A stretch of 63,990 bases of DNA, counting the filler, from an uncultured Gemmatimonadota bacterium (GTDB lineage: Bacteria; GCA-2686955), in assembly GCA_964490075.1 (NCBI GenBank). It is 3 parts of 3 records of this genome, joined end to end, with 100 filler letters (N's around TTAATTAATTAA, not from the genome) between each part and the next. Parts side by side here need not be neighbours in the genome. Positions count along the whole stretch, not along the records: positions 47,649 to 63,990 come from CAZBBK010000088.1; 2 more parts are not named here. One strand, written 5' to 3'. Under the pieces are notes generated by a model that worked only from the letters and a program-made list of their open reading frames with translations, ran no database searches and was not told the DNA's origin. The stretch's first letter is position 1. The number at the start of each line of letters is the position of its first letter. Shown here one piece after another: positions 16,973 to 63,988 of this stretch. Both the position numbers and the translations under genes were made by a program.

Positions 16973-17026
16973 ACACAATCCGCCGCCTGGTTCGTAGCCG
17001 AGCCGCTCCGCGGTCAGCCGCGGCGC

Positions 17027-17296
17027 CTGAGCGCGGTCAGCGGCCGATGCTGGTCGTGCCGCGATCAGCCACGGACACTGAGCAACCTCAGCAACCGATG
17101 CTGGCCACTCCACAGTCATGCAAGGCGCCTGAGCGCGGTCAGCGGCCCATTCCGGTCGCTTCACGGCCGCCCCGGACACCTGACCCGGGTCAGCGAGCAA
17201 TTCCGGTCGCTCCGCGGTCAACCGCGGCGCCTGAGTGAGGTCAGCAAACGTAGCTGGCCGCGCTACGGTCGGACGCGACCGCTGAGCGACGTCAGC
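17027..17296. repeat. Degenerate 51-bp-period array with CTGA-N6-TCAGC cores (6 units)
   Basis: Cores start at 17027, 17078, 17129, 17180, 17231, 17282. Confidence 0.9.
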
Positions 17297-17460
17297 AGCC
17301 GATGCTGGCAGCCGCGCGCTCGTCTCGCGCGCCAACGTGCCCCGCGCCGCGCTGGCAAGGCGCGACGACGAGTCACAGCCGGAGGCTACGGCGAAGCGGA
17401 GCAACAGCGAGCGACTCCGGGCACGCACCAACCGCAACCGGCACCTCGGTCAAAGCACCG

Positions 17461-52352: not shown

Positions 52353-53552
52353 CTATCGGTCGTCCAGCGCCGCCACGCCCGGCAGAGTCTTGCCCTCGAG
52401 CAGCTCCAGCGAGGCGCCGCCGCCGGTCGAAACATGGGACATGCTCGAGGCCAGGTTGGCCAGGTTGACCGCGGCCACCGAGTCGCCGCCGCCGACGATG
52501 GTGGTGGCGCCGCCTTCGGTGGCCCGCGCCACCGCCTCGGTCAACGCCATCGTTCCGCCGCGGAAGGGGGCCATCTCGAAGACCCCCATCGGGCCGTTCC
52601 AGACCACGGTGCGCGCCTGGGCGACCGCCGCGCTGAAGCGCTCCACGGTGCGCGGGCCGATGTCGAGCCCCATCCAGCCCTCCGGCACGCCCGCGGCGGC
52701 GTCGACGATGCGGGTCGCCGCATCCTCGGCGAAGCGATCGGCGATCACGAAATCGAGCGGCAGCACCAGGTCGCAGCCGGCGGCGGCGGCCGCCGCCACC
52801 ACCTCGGCCGCCATCTCGACCCGCGCGTCCTCTACCAGAGAGGCGCCGATCGGCACCCCTTGGGCCTTCAGGAAGGTGAACACCATGCCGCCGCCGACCA
52901 GGATCGTCTGAGCGCGCCCGACCAGGTTGGTCAGCACGTCGATCTTGCCGCTGATCTTGGCGCCGCCCAGGATCAACAGGAAGGGCGCCTCGGGAGCCTC
53001 CAGCGCCCCGTACAGGTAACGCAGCTCCTTTTCCATCAGGAGCCCCGAGACACAGGGCGAGAGCTGCGCGGCGACCCCCGCGGTCGAGGCATGGGCGCGG
53101 TGCGCGGCGCCGAAGGCATCGTTCACGTAGAACTCCGCCGGCTGCGCCAGCGCCGCCGCGAACTCTGCATCGTTGTCGGTTTCGCCCTTGTGGTAACGCA
53201 GATTCTCGAGCAGCAGCAGCTCGCCCTCGCCCAGCTCCGCCGCCGCCGCCGCCGCGTCCTCGCCCACGCAGCTCTCGGCGAAGGCGACTGGCGCGCCCAG
53301 CAGCTCCGCCAGCCGCGCCGCCACCGGGCGCAGGCTCATCTCGGGCACCACCTTGCCCTTCGGCCGGCCGAGGTGGGAGCAGAGCACGAGGCGCGCGCCC
53401 TGGTCGCGCAACGCGCGGATGGTCGGCAGCGCGGCCCGGATGCGGGTGTCGTCGGCCACCCGGGCGCCCTCCAGGGGCACGTTGAAATCGACCCGCACCA
53501 ACGCCCTGCGCCCGCGCGCGTCCAGATCTCGAATCGTCTTCTTCTCGACCAT
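52353..53552 (-). CDS. pgk: Phosphoglycerate kinase
   Basis: RVDFNVP, SHLGRP, NDAFGAAHRAHAS, GGGDS, STGGGASLE. Confidence 0.99.
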   Translation of the reverse strand: MVEKKTIRDLDARGRRALVRVDFNVPLEGARVADDTRIRAALPTIRALRDQGARLVLCSHLGRPKGKVVPEMSLRPVAARLAELLGAPVAFAESCVGEDAAAAAAELGEGELLLLENLRYHKGETDNDAEFAAALAQPAEFYVNDAFGAAHRAHASTAGVAAQLSPCVSGLLMEKELRYLYGALEAPEAPFLLILGGAKISGKIDVLTNLVGRAQTILVGGGMVFTFLKAQGVPIGASLVEDARVEMAAEVVAAAAAAGCDLVLPLDFVIADRFAEDAATRIVDAAAGVPEGWMGLDIGPRTVERFSAAVAQARTVVWNGPMGVFEMAPFRGGTMALTEAVARATEGGATTIVGGGDSVAAVNLANLASSMSHVSTGGGASLELLEGKTLPGVAALDDR

Positions 53553-53598: not shown

Positions 53599-54603
53599 CT
53601 ACAGAAAGAGCGCCAGGCGGCCCACCATCTCGGCGACCCGCATCGAGTAGCCCCACTCGTTGTCGTACCAACCGATCACCTTGACCAGGGTGCCGTCGAT
53701 TACGTCGGTGGACGCGGCGTCGAAGATGCAGGAGTGGGGATCGCCCACCACGTCGCTGGAGACGATCGGATCCTCGGTGTAGGCCAGAATCCCGGCCAGC
53801 GGCCCCTCGGCCGCGGCCTTCATGGCGCCGTTGATCGCCTCTATGGTGGCCGGGCGCGCCAGCTTCGCGGTCAGGTCGGTGAGCGAGCCATCCGGCACCG
53901 GCACCCGCACCGCCATCCCGTTCAGCTTGCCCTCCAGATCGGGGATGATCTTGCCCACCGCGCGGGCCGCCCCGGTGGTGGTGGGGATCAGGTTGATCGC
54001 CGCCGAGCGCGCGCGGCGCAGGTCGGAGTGCGGCAGATCGAGGATCCGCTGGTCGTTGGTGTAGCCGTGGATGGTGGTCATCAACCCGGCGCTGATGCCG
54101 AAGGTGTCGTTCAGGACCTTGGCCATCGGTGACAGGCAGTTGGTGGTGCAGGAGGCGTTGGAGACGATGTCCTGGTCGGCGCGCAGCGTGTCGTCGTTGA
54201 CCCCCAGGACCACCATGTTGTCGATTGCGTCCTTCGCCGGCACGGTCAGGACGACCTTCTTGGCGCCGGCGTCGATGTGCGTCTGGAGCTGCGCCCGTTT
54301 GCGGAAGATCCCGGTCGACTCGACGACGATATCGACGCCGAGATCGCGCCACGGCAGCTCGTTGGGGCTGCGCTCCGAAAGGACCTTGAGCGGCTTGCCC
54401 TCGACCCGGATCGAGTCCCCCTCGGCGGCCACCTCGCCGTCGAATCGGCCGTGCACCGAGTCGTACTTGAGCAGATGGGCGAGGGTCGGGGCGTCGGTGA
54501 GGTCGTTGACCGCGACGACCTCGGCTCCGTCGACCTGGCGAAGGGCGCGGTAGACGAGCCGGCCGATGCGACCGAAACCGTTGATGGCAACGCGATAGGA
54601 CAT
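53599..54603 (-). CDS. gap: Glyceraldehyde-3-phosphate dehydrogenase
   Basis: INGFGRIGR, SNASCTTNCL, WYDNEWGYS. Confidence 0.99.
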   Translation of the reverse strand: MSYRVAINGFGRIGRLVYRALRQVDGAEVVAVNDLTDAPTLAHLLKYDSVHGRFDGEVAAEGDSIRVEGKPLKVLSERSPNELPWRDLGVDIVVESTGIFRKRAQLQTHIDAGAKKVVLTVPAKDAIDNMVVLGVNDDTLRADQDIVSNASCTTNCLSPMAKVLNDTFGISAGLMTTIHGYTNDQRILDLPHSDLRRARSAAINLIPTTTGAARAVGKIIPDLEGKLNGMAVRVPVPDGSLTDLTAKLARPATIEAINGAMKAAAEGPLAGILAYTEDPIVSSDVVGDPHSCIFDAASTDVIDGTLVKVIGWYDNEWGYSMRVAEMVGRLALFL

Positions 54604-54723
54604 TTCACGATCTCCGGGAAGGTGGGCGGTCGAGGGGCCCTCTGAAGGGGCTCGGGGATCTGAGACGCAGAACAGCGAAGGGTATGCGGTGGTGGTGGGG
54701 ATGTCAATTTGGGCCGGAGGATC

Positions 54724-54929
54724 CTGGCGTTTCGATATAGCGCGTCTTCACGCGGAAAGCGCCCGGAACGCCTCCCATCGAGCCCCTGCCCATGCCCATG
54801 CCCATGCCCGATTCGGGCAACGGAGTCGGGCAGGGGCAGGGGCGAGGGCATGGGCACGGGCACGCGAAGAAGCGCGGTCGAGAGCGCTCCCCCAGCCGCG
54901 GATGGAGCCCCGGAGGCCGGCGGACTCCC
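54724..54929. repeat. Second, rearranged copy of the 50095-50334 repeat family
   Basis: CTGGCGTTTCGATATAGCG end motif; core in inverted orientation with expanded GCCCAT/GGGCAN hexamers. Confidence 0.7.
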
Positions 54930-55155
54930 ACCGGCCCCGACACAAAAGGCCAGCTCCGGGCCCGGAACCGCGAGTCATGACACCTTTTCGCGACACACCT
55001 CACCACTCTCGATCGGAGTCGCGTGTTACCACCGGATTCCGGCCCTGATGCGACGACGCCGGAACGGGGCGGGCGCCCGAGGACACCGGACATCCAGGGC
55101 GGACCGCGTGGGTGGCGGGCGAACGAGTGGAGTGCAAGGCGGTCATTCCGCGCAC

Positions 55156-55272
55156 TTGACCCGCCTCAGAAAGGGATGTGGGTCTCTGCGCGGTCGGGCC
55201 GGGAGTCTGAGATTGCTCAGGCGGGGTTCGTGGCCGCTTTTCCGTCGATTCGCGCGCCTGAGACTGCTCAGC
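55156..55272. repeat. Second 51-bp-period array of (C/T)TGA-N6-TCAG cores (3 units)
   Basis: Cores at 55156, 55207, 55258. Confidence 0.8.
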
Positions 55273-55523
55273 CCGCAATCGGCGCTCTTCGCCCGAATGT
55301 CGGTCCCACCCGCGCTCTTTGCCAGCGGATGGGAGAGCGGCAGCCGTCGCTGGGGTTTTAGGCGCCGGCGCGGGAGCGGGATCCAGGGTCGGGGGGAGCG
55401 GCGGCGGGCCGGGCGCCCTGCCGCGGGATCTTCCCAAGAGCCGGGGGCGATGCCGCGCGCTCTGCCGGAATCGGCCGAGGTCTGTTCCCCCCCTCCTCTT
55501 CAACAGGTCCTGGAGAACGAGGC

Positions 55524-56375
55524 TCAGGCCCGCGCGCCGTGCACTTCGCTCTGCGCGATGGTCACCGCTCCGGCCAGCTCGGCGCCTGCCCGGCGCAGGG
55601 CTTGCGCGGCCGCCGCGAGGGTGGCACCGGTGGTGATCACGTCGTCGACCAGGAGCACGCGCTCTCGCGGCAGCTCGGCGACCGCCTCGAAGGCATCGGC
55701 GACGTTGGTCCAGCGCCGCTCGCGATCGAAATGGGTCTGGCTGCGGGTGGCGCGGCGGCGCCGCAGTAGCTCGCGCGGGGGCGGCAGGCGGTGGCCGGCG
55801 GCATAGCCACGGGCGATCAACGAGCTCTGGTTGTAGCCACGCTCCCTACGGCGGGCGATGTGCAGCGGGATCGGCACCACGCAGGTGACCCCGTCGGTCA
55901 CCAGGCGTGCCGCGCGCTCGGCCGCCGCCGCGTCGTCTCGCCCCGACTCGGCGCGCAGGGCGTGGCCGGTGACGATTGCCGCCAGCTCCCGCCCCAGGCG
56001 CTGGCCGAGGGGCTCCAGGCGGCGGTATTTCAGCTCCTGGATCAGCGCCGCGAGGGGGCCCTCGTAGGGGTAGGCGGAGAGCACCACGAGGGTCGAGCTC
56101 TGACCATCTGGGGGGGCGAAGTCGACCCACTCGGCGCCGTCCAGGGTCGGGTCGGGGGCGATCGGCACCGCCAGCGGCGGCGGCGCGGGATCGGGAGGGC
56201 TCAGACAGGCGGCGCAGGCCAGGGGCGACTGGTGGCTGGCGGCCGCGCCGCAGCCGGCGCAGACCGGCGGCGCCAGCAGATCGAGCAGGGTGAGGAAGGA
56301 CTGGCGCAGCAATGCCGCTCCGAGGCGCGGAGCGGGGCGCGAGGGCAGGTGGCGGAGGAGGGTCGGGAAGGGCAT
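55524..56375 (-). CDS. comF: ComF family protein (zinc ribbon + PRTase-like)
   Basis: CAGC..CAAC, LKY, VPIPLH..R.RERGYNQS, LLVDDVITTGATL. Confidence 0.92.
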   Translation of the reverse strand: MPFPTLLRHLPSRPAPRLGAALLRQSFLTLLDLLAPPVCAGCGAAASHQSPLACAACLSPPDPAPPPLAVPIAPDPTLDGAEWVDFAPPDGQSSTLVVLSAYPYEGPLAALIQELKYRRLEPLGQRLGRELAAIVTGHALRAESGRDDAAAAERAARLVTDGVTCVVPIPLHIARRRERGYNQSSLIARGYAAGHRLPPPRELLRRRRATRSQTHFDRERRWTNVADAFEAVAELPRERVLLVDDVITTGATLAAAAQALRRAGAELAGAVTIAQSEVHGARA

Positions 56376-56540
56376 GGTGCGCCCCCACTCCGCATCCGCC
56401 GTGCCAGCGACGACAAAAAAGAAGAGCCCCGCGACCGGTGCCGCGCGCCCGCGGTGACGTGCGGATGGGCGACTCGCGGCTCCGGCGGGGGGCTCAGCTC
56501 ACCATCGGAAGGGAAAGGGCGCGGCTTGACCGACTATCTC

Positions 56541-57881
56541 TTAGTCCACAGTGATCGGCAGCGCCAGCTCGACGCGCACCGAGCTGCGATCGGTGGGGCC
56601 GTACTGCGGCACCGTGTCGACCGCCCACTCGTCCTCCGGCAGCAGCATCCAGGTGCGGTGGAAGCTGCCCACCAGCCACAGGTAGGTGTTCATGCGGTAC
56701 TTCGCCTCGACCAGGAGATGGGAGTTGTCGTCCAGTCCGAAGGCATCGCCGAAGCCGTCTACGTGGAAGCGGTCGTAGGCGGCGCTCAGGCGGATGCTCG
56801 GTCCCAGGTCGGGCAGGATGGTCTCGGCGTGCAGCCAGCCGTCGGGGTCGACGTCCTTCCACTCGTAGCTGCCGACCACGTAGAGGGTGTTGAGCAGATT
56901 GACGATCGCCTCACCGAACCAGCCCGATTCCCCTTTGACGAAGGCCAGGGCGTCGAGCTTGGTGGCCCGCTCGAGCTCGTAGAAGTGGTTGAAGTAGGGG
57001 ACCATGAACTGGTCGCCGAGGAAGCGGCGCTCGAGGCGGGTGGTGAGAGTGAGGGAGTTGGCGGGGAAGCGCAGCACGTCGACCGCGCCGATGATGTTGC
57101 CGGAGCCGTGGTCGGCGATCCGGGCGTGGTCGTAGTAGAAGGTCAGGTCGAAGGCGGAGCGACGCACTACCGGCAGGTCGAGGTCGAAGCCGAGCGCCAC
57201 CACCGCGTCGCCGGGTCCGTAGCGGTTCGGATCGATGTCGGTGACCAGGGTCGCGCCGACGCCCAGGGTGCGGAGGAGGGGCAGCTCGGGGCGGGTGTGG
57301 AAGGGCCGGGTGTAGATCCGGCCGCCGAGGATTTCGGCGCGCGCGAAGTTCGAGTAGATCGACTCGAAGCCCCAGTGGCCGTGGTCCATGTCGAGGACCA
57401 GCCCGGTCTTGCGCTCGTCCTCGTCGATGGTGTTGGCGTAGTGGCGCATGATCGACCCGTGACCGAGGGTGGCGTTGTCCTGCACCCCGACACGCACGTA
57501 GAGGGGATCGCCCTTCTGCGCCCAGCGCACGTAGCGGATCACCGCCAGGTAGTCGGAGAAGGAGTCCCAGTCCTCGGCGCGCACTTCGCCGCCCGAGGTG
57601 GCGAAACGCAGGGGGATGTAGAGACCGACGCCGAGCTTGCCGAAGCTCAGCTCGGGGCGCAGCGACACCAGAACGAAGGTATCGCCGTCGATGACTTCGA
57701 GACCGAGGCCGCCGTAGAGCGCCGGATCGTCGGTCCAGGTTTGGCCGCCGGGTGGCTCGGAGAGGTCATCCAGAAAGGCCGCCAGGCGGAATCCCTCGGC
57801 CCGCGCGCCGATCGAGGCGAGAGCGAGCGTTGCGCAGGCCACTGCGGCGCGGAAGGCGAGGCGAACGACCAAGGTGTGCAT
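56541..57881 (-). CDS. Probable outer-membrane beta-barrel protein
   Basis: Signal peptide from ATG 57881; IRYVRW..KGDPLYVRVG, TLGHGSIMRHYAN; amphipathic strands. Confidence 0.7.
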   Translation of the reverse strand: MHTLVVRLAFRAAVACATLALASIGARAEGFRLAAFLDDLSEPPGGQTWTDDPALYGGLGLEVIDGDTFVLVSLRPELSFGKLGVGLYIPLRFATSGGEVRAEDWDSFSDYLAVIRYVRWAQKGDPLYVRVGVQDNATLGHGSIMRHYANTIDEDERKTGLVLDMDHGHWGFESIYSNFARAEILGGRIYTRPFHTRPELPLLRTLGVGATLVTDIDPNRYGPGDAVVALGFDLDLPVVRRSAFDLTFYYDHARIADHGSGNIIGAVDVLRFPANSLTLTTRLERRFLGDQFMVPYFNHFYELERATKLDALAFVKGESGWFGEAIVNLLNTLYVVGSYEWKDVDPDGWLHAETILPDLGPSIRLSAAYDRFHVDGFGDAFGLDDNSHLLVEAKYRMNTYLWLVGSFHRTWMLLPEDEWAVDTVPQYGPTDRSSVRVELALPITVD

Positions 57882-57981
57882 AGGGAGGGGCTCCGTTAGG
57901 GGTTGAGCGGCCGACCGGGCGCATGATAGCGTTCCGCTCCCTCCTCCGCGGCCGCTGATCGACCGCGGAGTCGATCCACTT

Positions 57982-58066
57982 GCCCAGGTGGTGGAATTGG
58001 CAGACACGCTGTCTTGAGGGGGCAGTGGGGAAACCCGTGCGGGTTCGAATCCCGCCCTGGGCACCA
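57982..58066 (+). tRNA. tRNA-Leu(GAG)
   Basis: GCCCAGG/CCTGGGC acceptor stem; anticodon arm CTGTC-TTGAGGG-GGCAG; long variable arm; GTTCGAATC; encoded CCA. Confidence 0.97.
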
Positions 58067-58161
58067 GATCTACGGTCCGAAGGCGCGTGCGGCAAGTCGA
58101 AGAGGCTGCCGCGCGCGCCTTTGTGCCTCGAGGGTGGCGCCACCCGCACCGATCGGCGACA

Positions 58162-58386
58162 ATGAGCGCGATGCGAGCACCCAAAGACGTCGACTGGAGC
58201 GGCGTTTCGCCCAGCATGGAGCCGATCGCTCCCTTGACGGCCGAGACTTTCGTGGAGCGGTTGCGGGCGTTGACTCGCGATCTGCGCGCGCTGGAACGGC
58301 TGAGAGGTGCTTTCCTCTCGCAACACCCCGAGGTCGCCGATGGACTTCCTGTCGATTCTCCGCCGCATGGCGGCGAGCGGGCTTGA
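58162..58386 (+). CDS. Small hypothetical protein
   Basis: Short ORF overlapping the start of the nucleotidyltransferase gene. Confidence 0.45.
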   Translation: MSAMRAPKDVDWSGVSPSMEPIAPLTAETFVERLRALTRDLRALERLRGAFLSQHPEVADGLPVDSPPHGGERA

Positions 58387-61092: not shown

Positions 61093-62865
61093 TCAGCGAA
61101 GCCAGTCGCCGTTGCGGGAAGGGCACTGGCGATGCGCTGGCGTTTCGACATAAGGGTTCGCGCTCCCGGGTCCAATCCCGCGCGACGAGCCGCTATGTCG
61201 AAACACCAGCGATGCGGGCGGGGAGCGTGGCGGCGATCGCGGTCTGAGCAGCCTCAGGCGCGCGCCATCCGTCCCAAGCACTCTACCCCTACAGAGAACC
61301 ACCCCACGCAGCCCGACCCCAGAGCCCAGAGCCCAGAGCCCAAAGCCCAAAGCCTCGGCCGAAGGCCGATCCTCCTCGGCCGAAGGCCGCTCCTCCGGCA
61401 CCTCCACCACCCGCCCCGGCAGCACCTCGATCTCGATCTCCTCCACCACCTCGCCGGCGCTCAGGCGCAGGAGATACGAGCCGGGAAAGGAGTCGTCGGG
61501 GACGGTGAACTCCAGGGTGCCCTCCCAGGAGCCGCGGGCGCGCACCGGGCGTTTGCCGCGGCGGGCGATGAGGATCGGCTCGGGGTTGTCGGCGGGGCCG
61601 AAGGCGAGATCGAGGTCGATACTGCGGGGGTGGTCTTCGAGGTTGGAGGCCAGCACGTGGAACTCGATGGAGGTGCCGGCGAGGACAGCGCTGCGGCGCG
61701 GGACGACGTAGAGCAGCTCGGTCGCGCGCCGATCGAAGGGGTAGGGGCCGAGATCGAGGCGGGTGCCGTCGGGATCGCGGATGCCGAGCGGCGGGGATGG
61801 GTCGCCGGCGTCGATGGCGGGGGAGCCGGGGCGGAGCTGGAAGCCGCCCTGGGCGGGGTCGAAGAAGAGGGGGTCGGCGTGGAGGTCGTGGGTGGTGTCG
61901 GGCGGCCAGCCCTCGTGATCGATTCCCTCGTTGTCGAAGAAGAGGTTGTGGGTCGCCTGGAGGGGACCGAGCAGATGCACGACCCCGGCCCCCCGGTTGC
62001 GCACGAAGAGGTTGTTGCTGATGGTCACGCCGTTGAGTGGCCAGTCCGCATAGATCGCTCCGCCCCAGCCGCCCTTCTTGCCAGGATTCCAGCGCTCGTG
62101 GCCCTCGGCCGCGACGGCCGTGTTGTTCAGGAAGACGTTGTTCAGGATGCGGGTGTCGGTATCCATGTGGAAGCCGTAGACGTAGATCGCGGCGCCCTTG
62201 TTGGAGAAGTTGCCCTCGAACCAGTTGCCGCGGATGCGGCTGTTGCCCGTGATGCCGAGGGCACCGCCCTCGGCGGCCGCCAGGGGACGGAAGGCGTGGC
62301 CGTTGTTGATGAAGACGCAGTTCTCGATGAACGGGTCTTCGGGGGTGCTGTTCAGAGTGATGACGGCGCCCGAGAATCTGCTATCTTCGAGTGTCAGGTC
62401 ATACCCCGAGTGGTTCAGCCCCGCCGACCATCCAGGGAAGGCGTATCCTGACCCGGCCAGACGCCAACCGCTCACGACGACGTCTCTGACCGTCACACTA
62501 GAGAAGCTGGAACCGATTCCACGGCCATCCAGGGGGCACAACGTGAATCCTTGAATCAGATTTCCTGAGTCGGAGTGCACAACGTAGAACAGATTCGTCT
62601 GCTCCGGGACACCTTTGACCATTGTCTCATTGCTTCCGCCCAATCCAATGACCGATATGCCTTTTTCCTCCCACGCCACGCTCTCTTTGTAGGTGCCAGC
62701 CGCAACCAAAACACTGTCGCCGTCAACCGCGACATCCACGGCCTCTTGAATCGTATCGAACTCGGAGCAGGGACCGACGTAGAGCGTCGCCGCCCGGGCC
62801 ACGGCGGGCGTGATCTGGGCGACGAGCAGGGTCAGGGTGAGCGTTGATTTACATAGTGTACGCAT
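61093..62865 (-). CDS. Secreted right-handed beta-helix protein with C-terminal Ig-like domain
   Basis: Signal peptide; TIQEAVDVAVDGDSVLVAAGTY; GGAI repeats; ADPLF...SPAIDAGDP..DLGPY; last ~90 codons run through repeats and are doubtful. Confidence 0.8.
   Translation of the reverse strand: MRTLCKSTLTLTLLVAQITPAVARAATLYVGPCSEFDTIQEAVDVAVDGDSVLVAAGTYKESVAWEEKGISVIGLGGSNETMVKGVPEQTNLFYVVHSDSGNLIQGFTLCPLDGRGIGSSFSSVTVRDVVVSGWRLAGSGYAFPGWSAGLNHSGYDLTLEDSRFSGAVITLNSTPEDPFIENCVFINNGHAFRPLAAAEGGALGITGNSRIRGNWFEGNFSNKGAAIYVYGFHMDTDTRILNNVFLNNTAVAAEGHERWNPGKKGGWGGAIYADWPLNGVTISNNLFVRNRGAGVVHLLGPLQATHNLFFDNEGIDHEGWPPDTTHDLHADPLFFDPAQGGFQLRPGSPAIDAGDPSPPLGIRDPDGTRLDLGPYPFDRRATELLYVVPRRSAVLAGTSIEFHVLASNLEDHPRSIDLDLAFGPADNPEPILIARRGKRPVRARGSWEGTLEFTVPDDSFPGSYLLRLSAGEVVEEIEIEVLPGRVVEVPEERPSAEEDRPSAEALGFGLWALGSGVGLRGVVLCRGRVLGTDGARLRLLRPRSPPRSPPASLVFRHSGSSRGIGPGSANPYVETPAHRQCPSRNGDWLR
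61136..61210. repeat. Short inverted-repeat element of the 50095 family
   Basis: GCTGGCGTTTCGACATA ... TATGTCGAAACACCAGC, 16/17 complementary. Confidence 0.75.
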
Positions 62866-62871
62866 GACTTG

Positions 62872-63988
62872 CTACGGAGCTCCGCCGAGATCGAGTGGAT
62901 CGCAGGTGCCACCGAACCAGCCGGTGGTCAGTCCGGTGCGCGCCCGCTGGGCGGCGCAATTGATGCTGCCGGCCGCTGTGGCCAACTCCGTGTAGGTCTG
63001 CGCGGCGCCGACATAGGCGGGGTGCCTGGGATTCCAGAAGCCCCAGTTCTGGGTGAGCTTCGTGTATCTCCCACTCGGCACATCTCCGAGGGGCAAGTTC
63101 CTGGAGGCCGACGCGAACTCGTGATCGATGGCGTTGTACCAGAAGAGCCCGGCGATGAAGTGGTGCTGGCCCTGCCCCGGCGCCGAAGCCTTGGCCTGCA
63201 CCATCCCGGTCATGAAGTCGGTGTAGGCTGTTCCACGGGCCTCGTGACCGGTGATCACCTCGGGGTAGTGGTAATCCGGGTGCCTTGGATCGTTACACTC
63301 GCCGCCGCAGTTCGGGTTGGGAATCCAGAGCGGCTCTTCTCCCGACATACAGCATTCATAGCCCATCCACTGATCGGCATGATACGAGAACTCGGTGATC
63401 ATGAAGGGACGGGCCAGATCCTCGGCGACCAGGCTCTGGTAGACGTGCTTGAGCTGGTTGGCGGCTTCCTCGGTCGTTCCATGCTCCACGTAGAGGTTGA
63501 AGCAGAGGACATCGGAGTAGTGCGCCGCGATGCCCGCGATGTCGGGGCTGTAGGGGATCTGGAACTTGCCGAACCAGGCGAAGCGGTCGGAGAGGATGGC
63601 GTGTGGCGATTCGCTGTCGAACGCCACGATCGCCTGTCTCATGGTCGAGTAGAACTGGATGGCCAGCTTCTTCATGAAGTACTCGCCGTCGCTCTCTTCG
63701 AGGTAGCGGCCCAGGTCGAACTGCACGATCTCGCCTTCTTCGCCGTAGAGGGCGCCATAATCGACATCGGACGGGGTCTCAAACACCCGCCCTTCGTCCC
63801 AGCCGCACTGTGGTGGGGTCCTGCGCCACGTAGAAGCGATCGGTCGCCGTGAACTCAGCGAACGCGGGCATGGCGTACAAGAAAAGAGCCCCGAAAAGGG
63901 GCTTGACGACGCGCTCGAAGCTCAGGCACGTCTTAGGCGAACGGCGAACGGCGAACGGCGAACGGCGAACGGCGAGTGCTGCTCTCAT
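62872..63988 (-). pseudogene. Glycoside hydrolase (clan GH-A, beta-agarase-like), apparently internally deleted or frameshifted
   Basis: Signal peptide + TATDRFYV in one frame; C-terminal barrel half (AI..D..PHAILSDRF, DVLCFNLY, RPFMITEF) in another. Confidence 0.55.
63936..63975. repeat. Heptamer tandem repeat (GGCGAAC)5+
   Basis: Seen directly; a similar (CCCARAG)5 run lies at 61318-61354. Confidence 0.9.

Follow-up and report, generated by a model that had tools for sequence, protein, structure and literature searches.

A three-unit 51-bp repeat element upstream of gap-pgk belongs to a dispersed intergenic repeat family in an uncultured Gemmatimonadota bacterium

Introduction

What is a short, two-fold symmetric motif doing at exact 51-bp intervals ahead of a gap-pgk operon, and is its spacing held in place? 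We addressed this question for positions 55136-55288 of the window, by which we mean the whole stretch of 63,990 nucleotides analysed here, from an uncultured Gemmatimonadota bacterium (assembly GCA_964490075.1). A sequence-only reading of the window had noticed three such motifs. It described them as a second, unlinked copy of an array at 17027 and proposed a dispersed family with a conserved core and period, diverged linkers, and a function or a dedicated spreading mechanism.

The window consists of three contigs joined by N's (C77, 1-24040; C78, 24141-47548; C88, 47649-63990), and a window position on the last of these is the C88 position plus 47648. The source genome measures 5.70 Mb in 136 contigs, has 68.4% GC and is 95.3% complete. 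Its phylum is represented by 5 species genomes in the collection that we searched.

Results

The three cores read TTGACCCGCCTCAG at 55156, CTGAGATTGCTCAG at 55207 and CTGAGACTGCTCAG at 55258, with spacings of 51 and 51 bp. As had been reported, they repeat the exact period on another contig, the element at 55136-55288 lying on C88 and the 17027 array on C77. The pattern also proved to exceed chance. The window holds 10 cores against 0.87 expected, a number reached in 0 of 100 shuffles, and the genome holds 179 CTGA-N6-TCAG cores against ~49 expected from base composition. Two cores at exactly 51 bp occur 55 times in the genome, whereas the reversed control pattern occurs 0 times. Among gaps of less than 400 bp between neighbouring cores, 55 measure 51 bp and 12 measure 102 bp, with one each of 36, 79, 133 and 266 bp. 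Likewise, GGTC-N11-core has 93 genome matches and the off-by-one pattern GGTC-N12-core has 3. Cores outside units comprise 52 in genes, which is the control level (controls 6-80 in genes), and 28 outside both units and genes, most of them weak units. CTGA-N7-TCAG has 16 non-genic occurrences, versus 2-8 for other control patterns; these sites may be units with a 1-bp spacer insertion.

A search with an iterated nhmmer profile of the unit gave 121 matches at E < 0.01, of which 118 are full units. They form 46 arrays on both strands, and merging arrays less than 400 bp apart leaves 42 loci; these are spread over more than 30 contigs and occur in either orientation. The proposal of a dispersed family, as opposed to a single local duplication, is therefore borne out by ~118 units. 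Contig ends are touched by 15 of the 42 loci, so that copy numbers and contexts are incomplete. The period is strict: 68 of 72 unit-to-unit intervals measure 51 bp, the others 102 bp (2), 153 bp (1) and 79 bp (1).

Information in the profile is highest in the half-sites CTGA and TCAG, at 1.3-2.7 bits per position, and drops to 0.3-0.7 bits in the N6 spacer. Over the ~118 diverged units these four-base sequences show almost no variation. Core and period are thus conserved, as had been suggested, but the linkers are not simply diverged: they keep GCGGTC at unit positions 4-9, a T at 42 and GGTC at 46-49, at 0.8-1.6 bits per position. These GGTC-type blocks flank the core on both sides, ~20 bp from its centre, as direct and not inverted repeats. 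The first linkers of the 55156 and 17027 arrays had been said to agree at 19 of 36 positions. The 19 identities stand and the linker length is 37; random 37-mers from the same genome give a mean of 10.5 identities (sd 2.9; P(>=19) = 0.005), a background that the match exceeds.

The commonest array size is three units, found in 19 of the 46 arrays. Units inside one three-unit locus are only 44-57% identical outside the core, yet they lie exactly 51 bp apart. For 46 of 54 units the best match is the unit at the same position of another locus, and 13 of the 18 three-unit loci match in this way throughout. Units 1, 2 and 3 thus each have a consensus of their own and together make a discrete composite. 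This three-unit element is ~148-153 bp long, and at least 16 sharp-edged copies exist. When 16 of them are aligned, conservation climbs steeply at position ~3 of unit 1 and falls after ~149. The element at 55136-55288 is one such composite. It is neither a local triplication nor, as the sequence-only reading had it, a copy of the 17027 array. The family spreads as discrete pieces. The closest copies of 55136-55288 are C30:34530-34829, 90% identical over a 300-bp stretch that takes in an adjoining repeat module, and C48:1297-1526. The lone core that had been noted at 61244-61257 exists as well and lies in a truncated, inverted copy of unit 3, 35 bp long (61230-61264) and 88.6% identical to 55251-55285 by blastn. 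In a second class the arrays are homogeneous: their units are 80-95% identical to one another, and the largest array has at least 7. Such arrays adjoin conserved leader-like modules at one end and often end contigs.

Table 1. Features of the window around the element and its relatives.
Feature	Position	Strand	Evidence or remark
Three-unit (3 x 51 bp) composite element copy	55136..55288	+	nhmmer unit profile; C88:7488-7640
Units of the element	55136-55186, 55187-55237, 55238-55288	+	orientation of unit consensus
Core 1, TTGA-N6-TCAG, one mismatch to CTGA	55156..55169		sequence read
Core 2, CTGA-N6-TCAG	55207..55220		sequence read
Core 3, CTGA-N6-TCAG	55258..55271		sequence read
Inverted, truncated unit-3-like solo copy with core 61244-61257	61230..61264	-	blastn and alignment
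Six-unit array on C77, same family, other subfamily	17007..17312	+	TRF period 51, 6.0 copies
Spacer between comF-like gene and gap, 920 bp, mosaic of dispersed repeat families	54604..55523		blastn against genome
gap (glyceraldehyde-3-phosphate dehydrogenase)	53599..54603	-	PF00044 and PF02800, E 1e-64
pgk (phosphoglycerate kinase), second operon gene	52353..53552	-	PF00162, E 3.8e-152
comF-like phosphoribosyltransferase	55524..56375	-	PF00156 E 3.3e-8, weak DZR_2 match
Terminator-like hairpin and T-run, in other repeat module between element and gap	54947..54970	-	consensus scan only

The position of the array upstream of the gap operon was confirmed by the protein matches of gap and pgk (Table 1). 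The element lies 235 bp beyond the stop codon of the comF-like gene and 532 bp ahead of the gap start, distances to starts being approximate because the gene calls are our own rough, codon-score-based ones. A promoter scan gave no sigma-70-like promoter in the 54604-55523 spacer or in one array leader. There is no indication that the element regulates gap; its site, ahead of the gap-pgk promoter region, falls in the 3' region of the comF-like gene. The spacer also occurs in contigs assembled from four DNA runs, all of one marine study; these contigs break at the repeats, and they display no indel or joint within the element. A contig from a second run, an independent assembly, spans 54895-55299 with 0 differences.

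Other repeats occupy the same spacer. At 54776-54863 a GCCCAT hexamer run faces a GGGCAG run (TRF 54782-54809 and 54828-54862) and gives a long hairpin. This hairpin belongs to a separate dispersed family, of which GCCCATGCCCAT occurs 19 times in the genome. Rfam matches of miRNA-like kind at 54781-54856 come from this hairpin repeat, lie far below gathering scores and were rejected. The module at 54945-55015, with a terminator-like hairpin and T-run on the minus strand (54970-54947), has a summed metagenome depth of 248 versus ~10 in its flanks, so that it is either present in many copies or common to other organisms. A further hairpin repeat, TCATTCCGGCGAAAGCCGGAAT, is found 35 times in the genome.

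Further along the contig, a MITE-like unit at 61139-61215 has inverted ends of ~16 bp (CTGGCGTTTCGACATA ... TATGTCGAAACACCAG). Its end motif, GCGTTTCGA[CT]AT, occurs 39 times in the genome, often beside 51-bp arrays (copies on C58, C93 and C30). Tandem repeats at 61310-61396 and 63936-63975 consist of AGCCCAG x 6.6, a 21-mer x 2.1 and, at the contig end, GGCGAAC x 5.7. Beside the comF-like gene, long open frames without Pfam match overlap at 55791-57899 (+) and 56541-58217 (-), and a tRNA lies at 57982-58063.

We compared the rate of length change in the element with that in its neighbours. The three-unit element has 0.56 gap openings per 100 alignment columns at 75.5% identity, and 8 of its 11 HSPs are gapless. 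Other repeat modules of the 54604-55523 spacer have 1.91 gap openings per 100 columns at 81.4% identity, with 3 of 64 HSPs gapless. Indels are thus more than 3x rarer in the element than in neighbouring repeat families despite its lower identity, indicating that unit length is held against indels. Together with the near-invariant half-sites, this suggests to us that the feature is one copy of a lineage-specific, interspersed, non-coding intergenic repeat family of 51-bp units, constrained at the level of DNA and probably made of phased dimer sites. We put this reading first, though with a confidence that stays somewhat below even.

The arrays are almost entirely intergenic. Gene calls cover 88.8% of the genome, and 43 of 46 arrays have zero overlap with them. 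Of 19 spacers between tandem genes, 18 have the array closer to the stop of the upstream gene (p = 7.6e-5). The unit as a terminator was considered on account of one weak score for a terminator-like hairpin and T-run, and was rejected, only 7 of 19 arrays being suitably oriented. Array orientation equals gene orientation in those 7 of 19 tandem spacers, which is not significant, and no link was found between array orientation and GC skew (12/10/9/8). The near-stop placement could simply mark where insertions are tolerated, and in this respect it weighs against a DNA-level constraint. The genes flanking arrays are functionally unrelated (for example pheT, secA, groES, rimP, a sulfatase and glycosyltransferases). 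The idea of a regulon was dropped on this ground and on that of genic cores at control level.

These observations bear on the strongest rival, a selfish or neutral small repeat without a sequence-specific role in the host, MITE-like or spread by recombination. Conservation would then stem from recent spread together with concerted evolution inside arrays, and the repeat would survive at sites where insertions are least harmful. The family is one of many: of 605 kb of non-genic DNA, 15.4% recurs elsewhere in the genome (8.7% with at least 5 copies), and in the element's own spacer the figure is 82% (64% with at least 5 copies). The unrelated flanking genes, the occurrence of arrays in either orientation, the absence of the family from our searches of four other phylum genomes, and the high unit identity of homogeneous arrays, which fits recent local duplication, all favour such a repeat. 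Against it stand the units of the three-unit element, which keep their exact spacing at about half identity, the rarity of indels, and half-sites that hardly vary among diverged units.

A dedicated spreading mechanism had been proposed, and the sharp edges of 16 copies are compatible with copy-and-paste dispersal. The mobilising enzyme is the part that failed to appear: the Y1 transposase family PF01797 has 0 matches in the 95.3%-complete genome, while the same search matched 6 of 14 control genomes, and 0 of 66 array-flanking proteins match transposase or integrase families at E <= 1e-8. As the searches of genome and array flanks turned up no transposase, the family appears non-autonomous. 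Compared with MITEs, the element has sharp edges, but its ends share only ~7/10 bases when inverted, a weak match counted by eye on the consensus, and no flanking direct repeat indicative of target-site duplication is evident around the 16 aligned three-unit copies; these two points we count against the selfish-repeat reading. Locally, arrays appear to grow by head-to-tail duplication, as judged from their anatomy, since homogeneous arrays of at least 7 units occur and the assembly often breaks at such arrays. Weighing both sides, we regard a purely selfish repeat as unlikely, though it is the alternative that we take most seriously.

The next alternative is a structured RNA, or single-stranded DNA, of repeated modules with the forward strand active. 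A linker hairpin, GGUCGC/GCGGUC with G-U pairs, would form within units, UCAG would pair with the CUGA of the next unit, and arrays would be transcribed from the conserved leader-like modules that homogeneous arrays adjoin at one end. Compared with shuffles, RNA folding gave forward z = -3.27 and -3.23 and reverse z = -0.48 and -1.27. For 50 core-to-core pieces of 65 nt the mean energies were -29.3 forward, -23.7 reverse and -24.2 shuffled, and the alifold consensus of such pieces includes the linker hairpin. The forward gain derives from this G-U-containing hairpin and from adjacent half-core pairing; the six linker pairs form in 85% of cells on the forward strand, and two of them fall to 20% and 44% on the reverse. 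This strand asymmetry favours an RNA or single-strand reading and counts against a DNA-level one.

Covariation tells against the RNA. None was found for the linker pairs, for which shuffles pair equally (0.853 vs 0.85, with 349 of 500 shuffles reaching the observed value), so that these columns are conserved and not compensating. Mutual information follows subfamilies and not helices. Neither array has an Rfam family match, at gathering score or even at E <= 1. The lack of a sigma-70-like promoter in a leader points the same way, although the promoter type of the phylum may differ. Because covariation and orientation bias relative to flanking genes are both lacking, and orientation is likewise unrelated to GC skew, we rank the RNA below DNA-level constraint and consider it rather improbable.

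Hairpins centred on the core were examined as well. Of the inner pairs, 25/30 is Watson-Crick in 33% of 118 units, 26/29 in 34% and 27/28 in 53%. The first two lack complementarity, GG being commonest at 25/30, and we count this, with the low information of the N6 spacer, as part of a dimer-site signature. An extended core hairpin, or a stem closing a TCAG/CTGA loop, was rejected, as only pair 30/35 departs from expectation and it tracks subfamilies.

A chance triplet, a coding 17-residue repeat or a CRISPR-like array is barely credible: the control counts of 0 versus 55 speak against chance; although 51 is divisible by 3 and long open frames run through the array at 54709-55806 (+) and 55000-55503 (-), neither of these has a Pfam match, all six unit-phased frames score negative (-0.24 to -0.63 per codon vs +0.39 in genes), TGA closes two of the six in 32 of 32 arrays and the most open one is open in 24 of 32, which rules out coding; and the linkers, being conserved between units and loci, are not unique CRISPR spacers.

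How far does the family extend? Searches of three genomes of the same family and one of the same class gave background counts only and did not find the repeats. GGTC-N11-core has 0-3 matches in each of these four other phylum genomes. The same-family relatives are 83-84% complete in 270-900 contigs each, and repeats may be missing from such assemblies. The gap spacers of the relatives searched measure ~260-390 bp and contain no homologue of these repeats. On the basis of these four genomes, the repeat family is lineage-specific.

A scan for three cores at the 51-bp period in 185,579 species genomes gave 18 loci. Only one of them (L015, assembly G041) resembles the family, with four units and nhmmer E ~1e-6 on a small set. 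An unrelated assembly (G042; 70% GC, 8 Mb) has a dispersed 51-bp family of its own (loci L007, L011, L020 and L028), with 13 two-core matches on 6 contigs and 0 for the control. It shares the core, has different linkers with a GGAGAC-N5-GTCTCC inverted repeat in mid-linker, and scores at most 8.1 bits against the unit profile, from the core only. The remaining loci are unrelated tandem repeats, some of period 17. Among 57 loci of a metagenome scan, 0 match the unit profile and 3 are like the G042 family; a viral scan gave 2 loci, both unrelated to the family. Given these results, we do not claim the combination of a 51-bp period and a CTGA-N6-TCAG core as general. A search of one literature collection for the core as a string (CTGA-N6-TCAG, CTGAN6TCAG, CTGANNNNNNTCAG, TCAG-N6-CTGA) found no match.

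Discussion

Our preferred reading is that the constraint would act on double-stranded DNA. The core has two 4-bp half-sites one helical turn apart around a free spacer, and on this account it is a candidate site for a dimeric protein. With half-sites 10 bp apart and a core every 51 bp, ~five helical turns, successive dimers would sit on one face of the helix. The putative reader may belong to the host, as a nucleoid or topology factor of the sort that serves BIMEs, or it may be an enzyme that mobilises the element. The direct-repeat GGTC flanks fit a simple two-fold symmetric complex poorly, and we count them against dimer sites.

A bolder version would make the arrays phased operators. A dimeric protein, possibly of CRP/FNR type, would bind CTGA-N6-TCAG every five turns with a further contact at GGTC, and the arrays would be scaffolds at 3' ends that set topology or insulate genes. 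The boxes of CRP, FNR and FixK have TGA-N6-TCA half-sites one helical turn apart. The geometry of our core, xTGA-N6-TCAx, is similar, and the first core of the element reads TTGA, a resemblance of geometry only. In the host genome two proteins match HTH_Crp_2 clearly, at 59.7 and 50.4 bits; they are encoded in the regions C3:112632-112844 and C37:18745-18954. Relatives without the repeats encode CRP/FNR-type regulators too, so that the link is only a lead. Furthermore, dozens of phased sites in arrays are not known from CRP/FNR regulons. We therefore offer operator arrays as a speculation, and a doubtful one.

The family is an interspersed intergenic repeat of the STAR, MIRU and BIME kind and is a member of neither STAR nor MIRU. 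The STAR elements of Staphylococcus aureus are described as 62-90 motifs at 32-39 loci, with at most ~7 motifs per tract, in which a 14-bp core recurs with at least 40 bp of recurring sequence; they are intergenic, and their function and spread are given there as unknown (PMC3532100). The STAR core consensus, T(G/A/T)TGTTG(G/T)GGCCC(C/A), is asymmetric and GC-rich (PMC3532100). Our family has a comparable architecture: a 14-bp core and a recurring linker of ~40 bp (37 bp, slightly less than 40), at tens of intergenic loci (42), unevenly distributed among related species. The sequences are unrelated, however, and CTGA-N6-TCAG has no resemblance to the STAR consensus. Our core is two-fold symmetric with a free 6-bp spacer, the period is fixed at 51 bp and a three-unit composite is dispersed, which also sets the family apart from STAR. 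The host differs too, being an uncultured marine bacterium from a phylum represented by 5 species genomes.

MIRUs lie within operons, are oriented with genes and contain small ORFs that overlap neighbouring genes. Our family differs, having no consistently open frame and no orientation bias (7/19). In size class, locus number and tandem arrangement the two are alike: for MIRUs, tandem units 46-101 bp long are described from 41 loci (PMC3914561), and our family has 51-bp units at 42 loci.

With REP/BIME sequences the family shares an extragenic, dispersed and clustered distribution, often 3' of genes and in mosaics with other small repeats. It differs in that its arms are 4 bp long without covariation, so that no stable palindromic hairpin results, and in that its units run head to tail instead of alternating. 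REP/RAYT systems are set apart likewise, a Y1 transposase not being found in the 95.3%-complete host genome. Host proteins, IHF and DNA gyrase among them, are bound by BIMEs, and our DNA-level reading is modelled on this. CRISPR arrays differ, as the linkers here recur within and between loci and a 51-bp period is short.

The repeat family and its companion repeats explain assembly breaks and enlarged intergenic spacers in this genome, the 920 bp ahead of gap-pgk being one example. Should the DNA-level reading be wrong, the family is one more lineage-specific selfish repeat. If operator arrays were to prove true, the family would amount to a bacterial "satellite with a reader" with its phase under selection, and the family of the unrelated assembly (G042) would represent a broader class not yet recognised. 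REP, STAR, MIRU and other small interspersed repeats are widespread, and for most of them neither function nor mode of spread is known. The present family is clean to an unusual degree, with a dimer-site signature, a 51-bp phase kept at ~50% unit identity and a three-unit piece that is dispersed, and thus selection on spacing and its reader are directly testable in it.
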